Of a stretch of 32,000 bases of DNA, positions 13,049 to 19,529 are shown in pieces (position 1 is the first letter of the stretch; the number at the start of each line of letters is the position of its first letter). The position numbers and the translations under genes are program-made. The notes below the pieces were generated by a model that searched no databases, had not been told where the DNA came from, and saw nothing but the letters and a program-made list of their open reading frames with translations. Source of the stretch: Candidatus Brocadia sp. (GTDB lineage: Bacteria; Planctomycetota; Brocadiia; Brocadiales; Brocadiaceae); NCBI GenBank assembly GCA_021650915.1, contig CP091279.1, positions 1,020,001-1,052,000 on the forward strand. Direction: 5' to 3'.

Positions 13049-14116
13049 ATGGCCTTCAGACCGATAACCATTAAAAAAGGACTTAAAATCTTTATCGGAT
13101 TAACCGTCCTGGCTATTTGTCTTTTACTCGTTTTTACCTCGGACATAAAGACACTCCAAACCCTCAAGCTGATTGATCACCGATTTCTCCTGCTTTCACT
13201 GACACTGATCTGTCTGTCATGGTTTTTTGATGTACTACGGTTCAGGGTATTGACAAAAATTGCAGGCACAAAGACCCCTTTTCTGTACGGGACAAAGGCT
13301 CTTCTGTCTTATACGTTTGTTTCAAATATAACCCCTTCCTCTGCCGGCGGTGAAACGGTACTGATTTATTTACTGAATCAAAGCGGGGTTGCTTTGGGAA
13401 AAGCGACCGCTATTATCTTTTTGCGCACCATAATCACCATGATATTTTTTGCCATAGGCGGACTACTCACCATTTATTTTTATTATGATCTCTTGTCGAA
13501 TGCCAGTTTGAAGATACTCTTTCATTATGTGGCCATCTTCCTGGCAATAACTGTTATCGTCATTATTTACCTCCTTTTTGCGCCTCTTTCCGCAAGAAAG
13601 GGCTTGAATTTCCTATTTCTGTATTTCGAAAAAATTACCTTTTTCAAAAAGAACTTTTCCTGGTTGAGACACCGTCTTTTTCGGGTAGTCAATGATTTTA
13701 AATCCAGCCTTAAAGAAGTTGTTCAGGAAGAACGATGGCGATTGCTGCTCGTCATTTTTTATACTGTCTTGATGATCGCCGCGCAATTTCTTGTTGCCCC
13801 GCTGCTATTGGCGGGACTCGGCTGCAAGGTGAACGTCATGAACACGGTTAGAATTCAATTCGTGTTAAATTTCCTGCTCTATTATATGCCAACGCCCGGG
13901 GGCAGTGGTGCGTCTGAAGGCGTGGGGTATGCGCTTTTCTCGCCTCTTGTGCCCTCCAGCACCATTGGCGTTTTTCTTGTCCTCTGGAAATTTTTAACTA
14001 TGTATGTATGGACAGTTATCGGCGGCATCATCATTGCCAAAACCATAGGAATGAAACACCTTGAGGAGCTATCAAAAAACCGAGAAACATTTCATCAGAA
14101 TGAAAAAAAGAACTAA
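13049..14116 (+). CDS. Flippase-like / LPG_synthase_TM (UPF0104) family membrane protein
   Basis: 355 aa, polytopic. Characteristic MPTPGGSGASEG motif near the C-terminus and SSAGGE in the N-terminal half. Confidence 0.8.
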   Translation: MAFRPITIKKGLKIFIGLTVLAICLLLVFTSDIKTLQTLKLIDHRFLLLSLTLICLSWFFDVLRFRVLTKIAGTKTPFLYGTKALLSYTFVSNITPSSAGGETVLIYLLNQSGVALGKATAIIFLRTIITMIFFAIGGLLTIYFYYDLLSNASLKILFHYVAIFLAITVIVIIYLLFAPLSARKGLNFLFLYFEKITFFKKNFSWLRHRLFRVVNDFKSSLKEVVQEERWRLLLVIFYTVLMIAAQFLVAPLLLAGLGCKVNVMNTVRIQFVLNFLLYYMPTPGGSGASEGVGYALFSPLVPSSTIGVFLVLWKFLTMYVWTVIGGIIIAKTIGMKHLEELSKNRETFHQNEKKN

Positions 14117-14189: not shown

Positions 14190-15284
14190 ATGTTGAAAGG
14201 ATGTATTAAGCCGTTAGGAATGGTATTGTGCGGAATATTATGCATTCAGGTAAGTGCCTTTTCGGCAGAACCGGATGCAAAAAAAACGTCAGCGCCAGCA
14301 AAAGAGGAAAAACCTGCGGCAAAGACCGAAGCAAAGGCTGAGGCAAAGACCGAGACATCAAAAGGAGAAGTCAAGTCCGCAATTAAGGAATCAACACCAA
14401 AAGAGGCGGCACCTGGCACAAAAGAACAAGATCCCAATAAGATTTTGGCGACAGTCAATGGTGAGAACATCCTTCAGAAAGATGTTAATCACATCCTCAG
14501 CAGGTTTGGAAATCAGATACCGGCCGAGCAAATTCAGGGAGTTACCAAACAAGTACTGGATGGTTTAATTACCCAAAAACTTCTCACGCAATTCATTCGG
14601 GAGAATAAGATCGAACCCAGCAAGACCGATATCGAAACAGAGATAAACAAGGTACGGGAGGATATTAAAGCAAACCCGAGTCTGGCCGGACAAACCCTTG
14701 AACAGGTCTTGGAATCACATGGAAGTTCCCTTGATGATCTGAAAAGGGATATCACCATATCCCTCTCCCTGGAAAAATATCTTGGCAAAGACCTTGATGA
14801 CAAAAAACTCAAGGCCTATTTCGATCAGAATAAGGCTGCTTACAATGGTACCGAAGTAAGGGCAAGTCATATCCTGGTTGATACGCGGAAAATGACGAGC
14901 GATGCAGAGTTGAATCAGGCAATGGAAAAAATCAAAAAGGCAAAGGCTGAGGTTGCTGCCGGAAAAGATTTTGCTGAACTTGCCAAACAATATTCTGATT
15001 GCCCCTCGAAGGAAAAGGGCGGAGACCTCGGTTTCTTTCCAAGAAAGGGACAAATGGTTGAACCTTTTGCCGCCGCGGCGTTTGCGCTTAAAGTAGGACA
15101 GATAAGTGATCCCGTGAAAACAAATTTTGGATATCACATCATCAAGGTAACAGAAATAAAGCAAGGAACTGATGTTAAATTTGATGATATAAAGCAGAAC
15201 ATCAAACAGGACCTTTTACAGGAAAAGGCACAGGTGCTCATAACCCAGATCCGGCAGAAGGCAAAAATAGATATCAAGGCCTGA
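14190..15284 (+). CDS. Exported parvulin-type peptidyl-prolyl cis-trans isomerase (SurA/PrsA-like)
   Basis: 364 aa. Signal peptide ([18 protein letters not shown]), low-complexity [12 protein letters not shown] region, SurA-like N-domain. PpiC domain: VRASHILV...[23 protein letters not shown]...[18 protein letters not shown]. Confidence 0.9.
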
Positions 15285-15340
15285 AGATAACCAGTCACCT
15301 AATTCCAGCCTTTTTGATGAGAATTTATTTTCCGTAAATA

Positions 15341-15385
15341 AAAAGCTTCCCATTCATTGCAAAAGAATGGGAAGCTTTTTTGTTT
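15341..15385 (+). terminator. Rho-independent terminator
   Basis: AAAAGCTTCCCATTC (15341-15355) pairs perfectly with GAATGGGAAGCTTTT (15365-15379) around a 9-nt loop; the T-run continues as TTTTTTGTTT. Lies about 57 nt after the PPIase stop. Confidence 0.85.
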
Positions 15386-15499
15386 CTAATACTTCCTGTG
15401 ACATTTCAGTTGATTTTTTATCCTCAGGATATTATCTTTATTGCCTGTTACTTCGATTTAAGGTCTTTGCAATCGGACAGATGGAGTGAAATAATAATT

Positions 15500-15528
15500 T
15501 TGACTATCTCAATCGTATGTGATATATT
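15500..15528 (+). promoter_or_regulatory. sigma-70-like promoter TTGACT-N17-TATATT for the unknown-function cassette
   Basis: TTGACT at 15500-15505, 17-nt spacer, TATATT at 15523-15528, about 60 nt upstream of ATG 15590. Confidence 0.5.
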
Positions 15529-15589
15529 GCCAGCGGTGTGAGGAAATAATTTATTCCATGGTATCCTCAGGTATTGAGAGAGGAGGTAT

Positions 15590-15958
15590 ATGAAATCAAT
15601 GGCACCAAAAAAGCACGCTACGAATAAGCTTGTTTTAAGTTCCTTTTTCAGGATAATTACCATTGATGGAAAGACGGAACAAGTAACGACGAGGGTGAGA
15701 AGAACGCTTTTTTTCGATGATGAAGACAGTTTCCCTTTTTCAAAGATAAAAAATGTGGAAGTTGCAAAGGATATCAAAGAATCGATACCAAACGATTGTA
15801 TACGATACCTCGTGTTATTGAATTTGGCAAACGGGGACAAGATTCTAATCGATGAGATTGGCGAGTCTTCTCCTCGTGGAGGCATGAGAGAAATGAAAAA
15901 TCTTGGGAAAAAAATCAGCGCCATAACAGGAAAAACACTGAAAACGTTTGAAGATTAA
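15590..15958 (+). CDS. Hypothetical small soluble protein (122 aa)
   Basis: Strong SD AGGAGG (15581-15586) 3 nt before the ATG. No TM segment or signal peptide, no family recognised. Preferred over the almost fully overlapping antisense ORF 15448-15924, which is low-complexity and lacks an SD. Confidence 0.65.
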   Translation: MKSMAPKKHATNKLVLSSFFRIITIDGKTEQVTTRVRRTLFFDDEDSFPFSKIKNVEVAKDIKESIPNDCIRYLVLLNLANGDKILIDEIGESSPRGGMREMKNLGKKISAITGKTLKTFED

Positions 15959-16029
15959 ACGATTCGTTTTCACCCGTTGGAAGAAAAGAAACGAAACGAA
16001 TCATTTTATTATGATGTGGAGGACCTTCT

Positions 16030-16596
16030 ATGCAATGTGCGAAATGGTATCTGCCCATGCTCGGTGTTGTCATTTTAGGAATACCGGCATGGTGTAATGC
16101 ATTCGATATACACCTGACGCAAGAGCAATTAAAAGAGGCAAATGAGTACGGCGCACAATATAAAGGAAAGGAGATTTTTGAAAGCGCAATTGGAAAATCC
16201 GCCCGCTTTGGTGAATACCCTGGCGGGGACGGCGGATTGATTATGAGTAAATATATGAGAGTCGCAGTGAGTTCTGCCATGAGGGCGCTGAAAAATGAGG
16301 CGCTCACACCACAGGACTTAAAAGAGATTGATGCATCAACGACGTTCAATGTGATTGTAAGTATCCCCGAAGAGAACATACAAAACCCGGAGGACGTCCA
16401 GATATTGCTCATACAAGGGACCAATAATATTCTGCCACAAAAGACCGAGTTTGGCATGAAGTACAAAGATAAAAGACAAGGGATTATTGGCATCTTTTCC
16501 TATGAAAAAATCAACCCAAAAGCAAGCACTACAATCCTGATCAAAACGCGAAATGACGAGAGAAAATTTACCATTGATTTTTCTGATGTAAAATGA
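16030..16596 (+). CDS. Exported protein of unknown function (paralogue of 24518-25114)
   Basis: 188 aa. Signal peptide MQCAKWYLPMLGVVILGIPAWCNA, GGAGG SD. Colinear similarity to the 198-aa protein at 24518-25114: IHLTQEQLKEANEYG vs IHYSLSEEQIKQAIAYG; LTPQDLKEI vs LTDAEIYQSL; TILIKTRNDERKFTIDF vs LVILSPLNNERRFVFPL. Confidence 0.8.
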   Translation: MQCAKWYLPMLGVVILGIPAWCNAFDIHLTQEQLKEANEYGAQYKGKEIFESAIGKSARFGEYPGGDGGLIMSKYMRVAVSSAMRALKNEALTPQDLKEIDASTTFNVIVSIPEENIQNPEDVQILLIQGTNNILPQKTEFGMKYKDKRQGIIGIFSYEKINPKASTTILIKTRNDERKFTIDFSDVK

Positions 16597-17654
16597 TCAA
16601 GACCTTAGAAAATAAAAAAACAGGACCGAAACGGACGTTCAGGGATAAAATATTTGATTATTCCTGTCAAAAAATTGGTAAACAAAGGACAAAGACATTT
16701 TTTAAATTATACGATCTTGCCAGGTTTGACCTCTTTGGCAAACCAAAAGGCGCAATCGGTTCAATTGATATTACCAACCGCTGCAATCTGCGTTGCAAAC
16801 ATTGCTACTTTTATGCGCATGACTACGAAAAGCAGCCTGAACTCACCGATGATGAATGGATTGAAAAACTGGAGAGTTTAAAGGAGACCGATTTCCCATT
16901 CTATCAATGTTCCTGGGTTGGTGGTGAGCCGCTCCTGCGAAAGGATCTTGTTGAACGGGGGATGAAATATTTCAAATCAAACCTGATAGCTACCAACGGC
17001 ACCATTGAACTGCCCAACTGGCCTGATGTGAATTTTTATATATCGGTCGATGGCAGAAAAGAGATGCACGATGCCATTCGGGGAAAGGGCTGCTATGATA
17101 AGATACTGAAAAATGCATCCAGGCCTGATTTAAAGATTCATGTATCGATGGTAGTTAACAAAATGAATTACCAGGATATTGAGTATTTTATTGAAGAATG
17201 GAAAGACCGTGGCGTCAAAGGCTGTTTATTTCAAATACACACGCCCGTAAAAGGATTACAGAACGACGATCTTTGGCCTGGCTGGCAATTGCGTGACGAG
17301 ATATTAGATACCCTGCTAAAGCTCAAAGAGGAAAAATACGGTGATTTCATCGGCGTACCAGGCCTCGTCCTCAAACTCATGAAGTCTGATAAGTGTAAAG
17401 AGATTACCAGAAATTGTATTTTCAAAAAGGTAGCCTTTTGTTTCGATCCACAGGGCCAGATTAAAAAGCCCTGTATGATGGGTCCGCAGGCAGACTGCCT
17501 CCGGTGTGGGTGTGTGCTCCCCTTTCATATGTGGGCGCTTGAAGACAAGTGGCTCATGGCGAGAGAACTTCTTATATCCCTGCGTCGGAAGAAGGTGAAA
17601 AAAAATCCCGCGATATCTTCCCAACCCGAACGAGTCGGAAAAGAAATACGGTAG
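16593..17654 (+). CDS. Radical SAM enzyme with Cys-rich C-terminal extension
   Basis: 353 aa. CxxxCxxC at C64/C68/C71 (IDITNRCNLRCKHCYF, nt 16782-16805) and GGEPLL. Seven Cys at residues 268-307 (KCKEITRNCIFKKVAFCFDPQGQIKKPCMMGPQADCLRCGC). The start overlaps the upstream stop as ATGA (16593-16596). Confidence 0.9.
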   Translation: MIKTLENKKTGPKRTFRDKIFDYSCQKIGKQRTKTFFKLYDLARFDLFGKPKGAIGSIDITNRCNLRCKHCYFYAHDYEKQPELTDDEWIEKLESLKETDFPFYQCSWVGGEPLLRKDLVERGMKYFKSNLIATNGTIELPNWPDVNFYISVDGRKEMHDAIRGKGCYDKILKNASRPDLKIHVSMVVNKMNYQDIEYFIEEWKDRGVKGCLFQIHTPVKGLQNDDLWPGWQLRDEILDTLLKLKEEKYGDFIGVPGLVLKLMKSDKCKEITRNCIFKKVAFCFDPQGQIKKPCMMGPQADCLRCGCVLPFHMWALEDKWLMARELLISLRRKKVKKNPAISSQPERVGKEIR

Positions 17655-17676
17655 GGGCAGGTTTGAAACCTGCCCC
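17654..17676. other. Perfect 11+11 palindrome overlapping the radical SAM stop codon
   Basis: GGGGCAGGTTT-G-AAACCTGCCCC. The first G is the last base of TAG (17652-17654). The centre GGTTTGAAACC is shared with copy B at 17784-17822. No T-run follows immediately; an A7-TA-T6 tract lies about 10 nt downstream. Confidence 0.5.
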
Positions 17677-17783
17677 TGCACAGCGAGAAAAAAATATTTT
17701 TGCTGAAAATGTCAAAATATTTTTTATTAGACACTAAACGGAAAGAGTCGAAAGAGGCAATATCCGTAGCACTCAATTCGTAA

Positions 17784-17822
17784 GTCAACCCCGTCCGGGT
17801 TTGAAACCCTGACGGGGTTAAT
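17784..17822. repeat. 39-nt palindromic intergenic element, copy B
   Basis: GTCAACCCCGTCCGGGTTTGAAACCCTGACGGGGTTAAT. The arms at 17787-17802 and 17804-17819 pair at 15 of 16 positions. Lies 9 nt from the 3' end of the minus-strand antiporter gene. Confidence 0.55.
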
Positions 17823-17830
17823 GTATGTGG

Positions 17831-19051
17831 TTACCGCAATACCGGAGTATTGTCAGTTTCCTTCACTTCCTTATCTCTCTTTTCAATAAACCGCTTAATA
17901 AACCAATCCGCTTCCTTCATCAGGATACTGCCAAACACTGCACTCAGTAACACATAGACACCGGTAAGTGACTTCAGGTGATAAGGCGCAGCAGAGTTTA
18001 TCGCAATTGCCCCGGCCAGAATGATAGAAAACTCACCCCGGGGGATAAGACTAAATCCAAGCCTTAAGCAAGCCCTTTTACTCAGTTCGTACTTTTTCCC
18101 GATAAAATATCCCCCAAAAACCTTACTAAAAGAAGAGACAATAAAGATAAATATCCCGATGGGGATCATGCTTCCAAAATGTTTATAATCAATGGACATC
18201 CCAAACGCAACAAAGAAAATCGCTGTGGAAAATTGCTGGAAGGGTTTTATCGCGTCTGAAATTCGATGTCTCTGCTTTGTCTCCGACAGCAGGAGGCCTG
18301 CAAGAAAGGCCCCGATTGCCTCAGAAAGCCCTATCCGGGAAGCAGCGCCAGCAGAAAGAACAATAATCGAAAGGATCAGGATAACAAATAATTCCGTATG
18401 TTCGATATCAACCACCTTATCGATATATTTTTTTGTCGTCCTGGAAAGCATGATAAAAAATAGAAAAAAGGCAGAGGTCTTGAGTATCACAAAGAAGATT
18501 CCCCGCGCATCTATATGCCCGTAATTCACAACACCAACAATGCAGGCAAGAAACGAAGCGATAAACATATCTTCAAAAATCAGAACATTGAGCACGTATT
18601 CAGTTTCCGGATTGGCCGAACGTTTCAAGTCAATGATCGATTTGGCAACAATCACAGAACTGGTTACATACACAACCCCTGCAAATAAAAGGGCATGGAT
18701 GAGGTCATACCCTAATATCCACCCAAGCAGCAGACCAGGCGGAAAGTTAAAAAGCAGATCATACATTCCACTAGAAAATATTTTTCTTTGGTTATGAACC
18801 AGGCTGCCAACGGAAAATTCGAGTCCAAACATAAAGAGCATAAAGATGATACCAAGGGTGGCAATAAATTCGGTAATAATCGTGAGGGGGAAAAAATTCT
18901 GAAGGATCATGCCTACCACAATAAACACTGCGGTAAGAGACTGGTTGACCTTGGTAGCCAAAAAACCGGCAAAAAAGAGCGCGATGAGAGAAATGCCTAA
19001 CGACAATACGCTTTCATTAACGATCATTTTCCAAGCGATGCTTAATTTCAA
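17831..19051 (-). CDS. CPA2-family cation:proton antiporter (KhtU/Kef-like)
   Basis: 406 aa, about 12 TM helices, Na+/H+ exchanger-type sequence (GFLATKV...LGIIFMLFMFGLEFS...PRGEFSIILA). An alternative ATG at 19027 would cut the overlap with the upstream gene from 35 to 11 nt. Confidence 0.88.
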   Translation of the reverse strand: MKLSIAWKMIVNESVLSLGISLIALFFAGFLATKVNQSLTAVFIVVGMILQNFFPLTIITEFIATLGIIFMLFMFGLEFSVGSLVHNQRKIFSSGMYDLLFNFPPGLLLGWILGYDLIHALLFAGVVYVTSSVIVAKSIIDLKRSANPETEYVLNVLIFEDMFIASFLACIVGVVNYGHIDARGIFFVILKTSAFFLFFIMLSRTTKKYIDKVVDIEHTELFVILILSIIVLSAGAASRIGLSEAIGAFLAGLLLSETKQRHRISDAIKPFQQFSTAIFFVAFGMSIDYKHFGSMIPIGIFIFIVSSFSKVFGGYFIGKKYELSKRACLRLGFSLIPRGEFSIILAGAIAINSAAPYHLKSLTGVYVLLSAVFGSILMKEADWFIKRFIEKRDKEVKETDNTPVLR

Positions 19052-19529
19052 AGGTGGATATAAATTTTTTTACCTGTTCATTGTTTCCTACGACAATAAG
19101 AGTGTCCTGAGGCTTGATACTCTCGCCGGGATTGGGATTCGGCATTACGGTCTCACCTCTGATAATGGTGGTAATGGAAACCCCCGTCCTTCTTCTGATA
19201 TCCAGATCTTCGATCTTTTTATTCACTAACATCGAATCGGGCATAATCTTTATCCATTCCATGGTCGCATTCTTCATTGCCAATTTCTGCTCTTCCTCCA
19301 CAACCGGCTGAAAGTACGTTCCAGAGAGAATTGCGCCAATCTGACGTGCCTCTTCATCAGCAAGGGTGGTGACCGATGCCGGTTCATCGTTGTCTCGCGT
19401 AAATTTAAACACCTCTCTCTCACCTGAAGAATGGATGACCACCACCAACTTATCGCCTGAGTCCAATTCCAGGGTAAATTTTTTACCAATTCCGGGCAGT
19501 TCGCTTTCCTTGATTTCCGACATAAACAA
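19017..19529 (-). CDS. Cation:proton antiporter regulatory subunit with TrkA-C (RCK_C) domain (KhtT-like)
   Basis: 170 aa. The N-terminus IKESELPGIGKKFTLELDSGDKLVVVIHSSGEREVF...DEEARQIGAILSG resembles the B. subtilis KhtT N-domain as I recall it. The C-terminal TrkA-C pattern is KKIEDLDIRRRTGVSITTIIRGE...P.PGESIKPQDTLIVVG. Confidence 0.8.
   Translation of the reverse strand: MFMSEIKESELPGIGKKFTLELDSGDKLVVVIHSSGEREVFKFTRDNDEPASVTTLADEEARQIGAILSGTYFQPVVEEEQKLAMKNATMEWIKIMPDSMLVNKKIEDLDIRRRTGVSITTIIRGETVMPNPNPGESIKPQDTLIVVGNNEQVKKFISTFEIKHRLENDR

Follow-up and report, generated by a model that had tools for sequence, protein, structure and literature searches.

The tetraether synthase Tes, or GDGT-MAS (model NF045702; PDB 7tol), and Gms are radical S-adenosylmethionine (SAM) enzymes with auxiliary clusters that activate inert C-H bonds in lipids, and the tes, gms and mss genes cluster in Acidobacteria and Planctomycetes (PMC11214058). 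Another kind of radical SAM enzyme, the anaerobic sulfatase-maturating enzymes (anSMEs; AtsB/ChuR, TIGR03942), carries C-terminal auxiliary iron-sulfur (Fe-S) cysteines, is encoded beside a gene for a signal-peptide protein, and acts on clients that have a sulfatase domain and a C/S-x-P/A-x-R motif. Here we compare these systems with a three-gene locus in a 32,000-nt stretch of the Candidatus Brocadia sp. genome (GCA_021650915.1, contig CP091279.1, positions 1,020,001 to 1,052,000 of the forward strand), referred to below as the window. The three genes, which we call A (15590-15958, 122 aa), B (16030-16596, 188 aa) and C (16593-17654, 353 aa), all lie on the plus strand. The original prediction described them as an autonomous cassette in which C would act as the maturase of the exported product of B. 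Together A, B and C form a real, conserved and discrete unit restricted to the Brocadiaceae. The explanation that we tentatively favor, with a probability of about 45%, is that C encodes a radical SAM enzyme which probably acts on lipids and is co-expressed with, and coupled in translation to, two accessory proteins found only in the Brocadiaceae.

The three-gene arrangement and all the features that the original prediction had described were found in the window. B and C overlap by 4 nt (ATGA), the start of C sitting within the stop of B, and all the Brocadiaceae loci that were examined keep this overlap, which was also part of that prediction. On the 5' side the unit is bounded by the intrinsic terminator of a gene for a SurA-like peptidyl-prolyl isomerase (PPIase), at 15340..15389 on the plus strand. 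Its arms (15340-15358 and 15362-15380, 19+19 nt) are 95% complementary and are followed by the T-run TTTTTTGTTT. The fold has a computed energy of -23.1 kcal/mol with z = -7.2, and 0 of 200 shuffles were as stable, in keeping with the strong upstream terminator proposed earlier; the same hairpin is found 5' of A in Jettenia (L004). A sigma-70-type promoter, TTGACT-N17-(TG)TGATATATT, follows at 15500..15528 on the plus strand, with 10/12 matches and a TG extension. This TTGACT-N17-TATATT site, which had been named as the unit's own promoter, ranked second when 5 kb were scanned for promoter-like sites. Jettenia L004 and L094 carry the block TTGACTATC...TGTGATATATT of this promoter 5' of A with little change, and a degenerate version is present in L003 (both L003 and L094 being Brocadiaceae-type loci); for non-coding DNA, this degree of sequence conservation exceeds chance expectation.

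Strong Shine-Dalgarno sequences precede A (GAGGAGG, 15580-15586) and B (GGAGG, 16018-16022), and C has none of its own. No Rfam family reached threshold in a scan of 15200-17900, and a riboswitch or leader RNA in the 5' untranslated region was rejected, the only matches being sub-threshold ones to terminator-like models. The GC content of the locus is near that of its surroundings. At the 3' end a perfect palindrome overlaps the TAG stop of C, as the original prediction had it, with arms of 12+12 nt instead of the 11+11 given there (17653..17677, no strand assigned; arms 17653-17664 and 17666-17677). Folded with a second hairpin it reaches -33.5 kcal/mol (z = -6.0). It lies between the convergent genes C and a Na+/H+ exchanger gene (17831-19051, minus strand), no T-run follows it on the plus strand, and it is likely a bidirectional terminator or an RNA-stabilizing hairpin. 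At this position other genera have different hairpins instead of the palindrome, and the absence of a second copy within the window excluded a dispersed repeat. From these signals we infer that A, B and C are carried on one transcript and that translation of C is coupled to that of B.

About 170 loci holding a C relative came from profile searches of representative genomes and metagenomes, and each was examined for A and B with tblastn and family hidden Markov models (HMMs). The A-B-C order and the 4-nt overlap of B and C were also seen in Loosdrechtia (L001), Jettenia (L004) and four more contigs of Brocadiaceae type, L003 and L094 among them, and A and B lie upstream of C in three further metagenome loci (L098-L100). 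The flanks are mostly syntenic, running from MarC and the PPIase through A-B-C, sometimes followed by the exchanger and a TrkA_C gene, to CobO and ThyX. The unit is intact despite changed flanks: in L094 the PPIase gene and A are separated by 2 additional genes, and L001 is without the exchanger genes. That trio and promoter are both conserved across genera upholds the idea of an autonomous cassette under a promoter of its own.

A and B were present only where C was at least 81% identical to the query. Neither was found near C in the anaerobic ammonium-oxidizing (anammox) bacteria Subterrananammoxibius (L006, C 73% identical) and Anammoxibacter (L007, 67%), in the Brocadiia-type loci L096 (68%) and L101 (65%), or near any of the more distant C orthologues; in Anammoxibacter, C still adjoins ThyX. 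On a neighbor-joining tree the C genes linked to A and B formed one terminal clade, the Brocadiaceae, without an unusually long branch, nested among C genes of Brocadiia and other Planctomycetota that are 50-73% identical and have no A or B. Because the linked genes make up a single terminal clade among stand-alone C genes, A and B were most likely gained once, at the base of the Brocadiaceae, upstream of an older, resident C.

C matches Pfam PF04055 (Radical_SAM) at 61.3 bits, against a gathering score of 29.5, and its cluster motif CNLRCKHC (residues 64-71, with C64, C68 and C71) is invariant in 23 diverse orthologues. By its CxxxCxxC motif and this match, C is a member of the radical SAM superfamily. 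Five further cysteines near its C-terminus (C275, C294, C302, C305 and C307) are invariant in the same 23 orthologues and follow the pattern C-x12-G-x5-C-x7-CxxCxC, which suggests a twitch-like or truncated-SPASM auxiliary cluster. There was no match to the Pfam SPASM domain (PF13186), and the five cysteines are not the full SPASM set. No NCBIfam model reached its cut-off for C. The nearest relatives in the PDB were SkfB, ranked first, and the tetraether synthase GDGT-MAS, ranked second, with similarity to the core only.

On an HMM built for the C clade, members scored at least 370 bits over their full length and carried the C-terminal motif; no other match exceeded 314 bits, and ordinary radical SAM genes reached about 110 bits at best. 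The open reading frames of the clade span 303-428 aa from stop to stop, and called C genes 340-353 aa. By these scores C belongs to a sharply bounded, uncharacterized clade of small radical SAM enzymes of about 300-375 aa. A C-like gene of Hadarchaeum (L020) scored 294 bits; it is borderline and was not relied on. Divergent C-like genes of Asgard archaea (L022:2968-4598 and L023:5223-6897) scored about 195 bits, outside the clade. At both Asgard loci a FabG-like short-chain dehydrogenase gene precedes the C-like gene, and a convergent gene for an alkyl-sulfatase-like metallo-beta-lactamase follows it.

The sole positive functional evidence on C comes from the genes beside its orthologues. On soil and Acidobacteriota-type contigs, where C is 43-51% identical to the query, a gene for a Tes-like protein of 650-690 aa precedes C by 15-2300 nt on the same strand. 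This order was found at about 18 loci, among them L015:2759-6927 (same strand; Pyrinomonadaceae), where the Tes-like gene scored 312 bits on NF045702, below the 450-bit cut-off, and L104, L106, L108-L111, L114, L117, L123, L125, L129, L137, L138, L161, L168 and L176. Within a Desulfobacterota-type subclade, C directly follows a gene for a radical SAM/SPASM protein of about 460 aa with a long N-terminal domain, a Gms-like architecture (L014:1216-3629, L103, L116, L131, L133 and L166; gaps of about 3-560 nt by tblastn coordinates). A Gms-like gene stands elsewhere in the same locus as C in L013, L118 and L153, and B12-radical SAM genes accompany C in L013, L018, L118, L139 and L156. Among the 28 loci that have 1.5 kb or more of upstream sequence and a C of 39-52% identity, 19 had a lipid-type radical SAM partner. 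The Tes- and Gms-linked positions occupy two separate subclades of the C tree. This Tes- and Gms-like gene context points to a lipid or other hydrophobic substrate for C, rather than a protein.

Several observations were made at the same loci. In L013 (3000-12950) and L118, three B12-radical SAM genes, the Gms-like radical SAM/SPASM gene and the C orthologue stand in one cluster with genes for a PagL-like outer-membrane protein, a family 2 glycosyltransferase (GT2) and a polysaccharide deacetylase/DUF3473 protein; by its gene content the cluster looks like an envelope-lipid modification island. Many acidobacterial loci have a gene for a 185-270-aa protein between the tes-like gene and C (L015:4842-5393, L125:4290-4880, L108:559-1119, L138:326-883 and L114:1541-2134). 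This protein, in a position like that of B, has a signal peptide, a C-terminal hydrophobic segment and no Pfam match. Homology between it and B was rejected (hhalign probability 0.2%). The TrsS/Tes-like neighbors in L165 and L175 were dropped as support, the C-like genes there scoring 68-75 bits and falling outside the clade.

The two genes upstream of C in the Brocadiaceae encode proteins for which searches of Pfam, NCBIfam, PADLOC and PDB sequence profiles returned nothing, and the earlier statement that neither could be assigned to a family therefore stands. A has 74 homologues, all Brocadiales-type, with 57-100% identity and no Pfam domain in any; many of them begin at Met4, and A is 100% identical to a protein of Candidatus Brocadia metagenome-assembled genomes (MAGs). 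It is predicted to be cytoplasmic, a hydrophobic segment being absent. The AlphaFold2 (AF2) model of A (predicted local distance difference test, pLDDT, 82.6; 1 of 5 models confident) has seven strands and a C-terminal helix. The top Foldseek matches were pleckstrin homology (PH)-like: EROS (8kei_D, template modelling (TM) score 0.55) and the bacterial PH proteins 3hsa, 3dcx and 3b77. With Foldseek probabilities of up to 1.0, TM scores of 0.46-0.55 and a fitting DSSP pattern, and with no sequence family, A is tentatively predicted to adopt a PH-like fold, a seven-stranded beta-sandwich capped by the C-terminal helix. A is more conserved than B and has many invariant residues, including those of an ESSxRGG loop.

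B has 77 close homologues, again all Brocadiales-type and none with a Pfam domain, and is 99% identical to a protein of Candidatus Brocadia MAGs. Judged by inspection and hydropathy, residues 1-24 (16030-16101, plus strand) form a Sec-type signal peptide, with K5, a hydrophobic stretch at residues 7-21, a hydropathy peak at residues 12-16 and cleavage between A24 and F25. Both of these residues are invariant, and position -3 is S or C. No lipobox or twin-arginine (RR) motif was found in B. B is thus predicted to be exported by Sec through a signal peptidase I signal peptide, in agreement with the signal peptide reported for the 188-aa product in the original prediction. Its AF2 model (pLDDT 85.4) shows a disordered signal peptide, a helical part and then an immunoglobulin (Ig)-like beta-sandwich, and Foldseek against the PDB gave partial Ig-like matches only (TM about 0.3). 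Mature B in the window is without cysteine, the nearly conserved Cys59 being Arg here, and no conserved Cys or Ser target was found among B homologues. The sulfatase-motif-like SSAMR at residues 81-85 lies in a predicted helix and is kept in 5 of 34 homologues, a chance match.

About 30 distant relatives of B, full-length and all with a signal peptide, emerged from an exhaustive profile search, and most of them keep a DFSxxK-like C-terminal ending. The B family consists of signal-peptide proteins of about 190 aa with no Pfam entry. The distant relatives P0276, P0279 and P0282 have CCExC or HHCEWC inserted in the beta-sandwich; the insertion, absent from the Brocadiaceae proteins, may bind a metal or form a disulfide. 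One of the distant loci comes from GCA_001723765.1 (contig MAYW01000126.1), which we take to be Candidatus Scalindua rubra.

Taken together, we propose that an older C was resident in this lineage and that A and B were inserted upstream of it once, giving a Brocadiaceae-specific operon. One promoter would drive all three genes, with C translated by coupling to B. C would abstract hydrogen from a hydrophobic substrate, most likely an alkyl chain of a membrane lipid, using its auxiliary cluster as Tes and Gms do, and would leave B unmodified. B would be an ordinary protein of the periplasm or anammoxosome, exported by Sec, and A would serve as a cytoplasmic PH-like adaptor. Both may be lineage-specific accessories of C, possibly in the same membrane or envelope process. 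The operon would mark two Brocadiaceae-only proteins, one of them exported to the periplasm or anammoxosome, as likely co-expressed with an Fe-S radical enzyme.

A more specific version of this proposal is that the C clade is an undescribed small lipid-modifying enzyme that partners Tes- and Gms-like synthases and was recruited in anammox bacteria, along with A as a cytoplasmic PH-like membrane adaptor and the exported B, for the modification or handling of their unusual membrane lipids; this we consider unlikely. If it were true, the C clade in Acidobacteriota and Desulfobacterota would supply a missing step in the synthesis or decoration of branched membrane-spanning lipids of the branched glycerol dialkyl glycerol tetraether (brGDGT) type. 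Branched tetraether lipids underpin widely used palaeoclimate proxies. To our knowledge, the enzymes that decorate the bacterial ones are unknown, and the biogenesis of lipids and organelle in anammox bacteria is largely so. Homologues of Tes, Gms and Mss have been surveyed with length cut-offs set at 400 aa or above (10.1101/2023.10.20.563219; PMC11186832), and the C clade (300-375 aa) would have fallen below them. Since these cut-offs would exclude a protein of that length, the clade is a concrete, testable lipid-enzyme candidate. In the literature on tes, gms and mss we found no paper naming a 300-375-aa partner or its link to tes- or gms-like genes.

A number of points weigh against the preferred reading of C as a lipid-directed enzyme with two accessory proteins. 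The Brocadia window has no tes-, gms- or B12-type gene. The Tes-linked loci belong largely to one acidobacterial lineage (their Tes-like genes are 67-90% identical) and so represent few independent events, and C genes of Brocadiia stand among housekeeping genes (ThyX, CobO, ThrRS) that are uninformative on lipids. Neighboring radical SAM genes may share only regulation or electron supply, and the tie of A and B to lipids is limited to hints at the level of fold. C is without a B12 domain and a full SPASM domain, so its chemistry cannot be named, and co-transcription and coupling are predictions from sequence. The main alternative, which we regard as possible but somewhat unlikely, is that the genes share only a promoter and that C is a non-lipid housekeeping enzyme, acting on a cofactor, nucleic acid or other small molecule, with A and B unrelated to it in function and placed by chance behind its promoter; the adjacency to tes and gms elsewhere would then reflect clustering of oxygen-sensitive Fe-S enzymes. 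The surroundings of stand-alone C genes in Brocadiia, beside ThyX, CobO, ThrRS-IF3-L35-L20, PSP1 and NTP-transferase genes, fit this account, as do the highly variable neighbors of C in Planctomycetota. The best curated models for C, although all far below their cut-offs, are also AhbC/NirJ-type cofactor enzymes (about 60 bits) and the uncharacterized PTO1314 family. What this alternative leaves unexplained is the recurrence, in two separate C subclades, of the same-strand, short-gap position behind tes- and gms-like genes, and the persistence of ATGA coupling and A-B-C order across genera while the flanks change. Less likely by far is that A, and not B, is the partner of C, either as its substrate or as a presenting or membrane-tethering adaptor that the Brocadiaceae enzyme requires. 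A is the more conserved of the added genes (57-100% identity, ESSxRGG loop), is cytoplasmic like C by prediction, and has a PH-like model, a fold that commonly binds membranes or partner proteins. This idea, which we consider very improbable, is at odds with the lack of A at every C locus outside the Brocadiaceae and with the absence of detectable homology to RRE domains or known radical SAM partners, and it leans on a model of A that was confident in 1 of 5 cases only. An anti-phage defense cassette of the prokaryotic viperin type is the least credible reading of all. PADLOC pVip models gave C 49 bits, confined to its radical SAM core, but the NCBIfam viperin model NF038283 gave 39.8 bits against a cut-off of 180, A and B had no PADLOC match, and the locus, which lies among housekeeping genes, shows synteny and vertical inheritance, a GC content near that of its surroundings and no mobile-element or defense-island context.

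The maturase reading of the original prediction holds that C modifies B in the cytoplasm before Sec export, in the manner of an anSME, with coupling delivering the enzyme together with its client. Within the Brocadiaceae B and C are always adjacent with the 4-nt overlap, Sec substrates are exported unfolded and so would be accessible to a cytoplasmic enzyme, and the auxiliary-cluster motif of C is of a type found in many peptide-modifying radical SAM enzymes. The neighborhood survey went against it on two counts: no radical SAM gene (and no A) was found beside distant B-family genes in any of the 5 independent loci fetched, of which L086 (127 nt) and L091 (about 70 nt) have almost no sequence downstream of B, and C orthologues at 65-73% identity and beyond occur without an adjacent B. 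The proposal thus fails outside one family and inside it, as a possible lineage-specific relation of enzyme and client, has adjacency as its only support. The A- and B-linked C genes also show no long branch on the tree. The anSME precedent fares no better, C scoring 38.2 bits on TIGR03942 against a cut-off of 349.45 and having no full SPASM set. No RRE or PqqD-type domain was found in A, B or C, the models of maturases of ribosomally synthesized and post-translationally modified peptides (RiPPs) were all far below their cut-offs, and the cysteine-free mature B, with SSAMR so rarely kept, offers no conserved target. C is probably not a maturase for its neighbor B, and we hold that role to be quite unlikely.

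The genes around the unit differ among Brocadiaceae. In the SurA-like PPIase encoded at 14190-15284, the signal peptide is followed by a long low-complexity stretch rich in Lys, Ala, Glu and Thr. Its gene stands immediately before A in most Brocadiaceae, with the strong terminator between them. In the window an LPG_synthase_TM (flippase-like) gene at 13049-14116 lies between the MarC and PPIase genes; it is missing there in Loosdrechtia and Jettenia, which implies a local insertion in the Brocadia lineage. On the other side, the Na+/H+ exchanger and TrkA_C pair (17831-19529, minus strand) is convergent with C and is found in Brocadia, Jettenia and L003. The pair is absent in Loosdrechtia and L094, where CobO comes directly after C.

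In comparison with described systems, the model of A resembles the bacterial PH-like (bPH) proteins 3hsa, 3dcx and 3b77 in size and in its topology of seven strands and a C-terminal helix, but A has no sequence match to any Pfam bPH family, the TM scores are only 0.46-0.55, and transmembrane helices are absent. C shares with the anSMEs its C-terminal auxiliary cysteines and a neighboring signal-peptide protein gene; beyond the model score it differs in having five C-terminal cysteines and widespread orthologues without B, and B has neither the sulfatase domain (no Pfam domain at all) nor a conserved form of the client motif. Radical SAM maturases of RiPPs are encoded next to a short precursor peptide, whereas the neighbors of C encode proteins of 122 and 188 aa that are modelled as folded. 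SkfB, a twitch-domain enzyme (PDB 6efn), is the best solved relative of C (E = 4e-18 over the core) and is like it in compact size and in a single C-terminal auxiliary-cluster region. The similarity is confined to profile positions 50-196, and SkfB has an N-terminal peptide-recognition domain and a co-encoded short peptide substrate, neither of which was seen at the C locus.

Among curated families the best score for C was to PTO1314 (TIGR03961; residues 59-295), a family of similar length whose function is also unassigned; its 66 bits, with the cut-off at 306, place C outside the family. A role specific to ladderanes was also rejected: the candidate genes published for them, one of which encodes a B12-radical SAM enzyme, are found in clusters for fatty-acid synthesis (PMC13459092, PMC2649909), the locus has no such genes, and C also occurs in non-anammox bacteria. 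Mss enzymes are recognized by their similarity to Tmari_0825 or WP_129545148.1 (E <= 1e-50) together with a minimum length of 400 aa (10.1101/2023.10.20.563219); judged on length, C, at 353 aa, is an unlikely Mss. Gms enzymes have at least 400 aa, a COG4001 N-terminal domain and a full SPASM domain (PMC11214058); the N-terminal extension of C amounts to just 55 aa or so and Pfam gives no SPASM match, and on these features, together with its length, C was set apart from Gms. Tes has an N-terminal zinc ribbon, while C has no Zn_ribbon_HMPTM match, falls short of 400 aa, and scored 48.8 bits on NF045702 against the cut-off of 450, over residues 53-121 only. Length, architecture and model scores therefore rule out C as Tes or Gms. 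C is 100-300 residues shorter than these lipid enzymes and has one apparent auxiliary-cluster motif, and Tes (GDGT-MAS) is nevertheless its second-best relative of solved structure.

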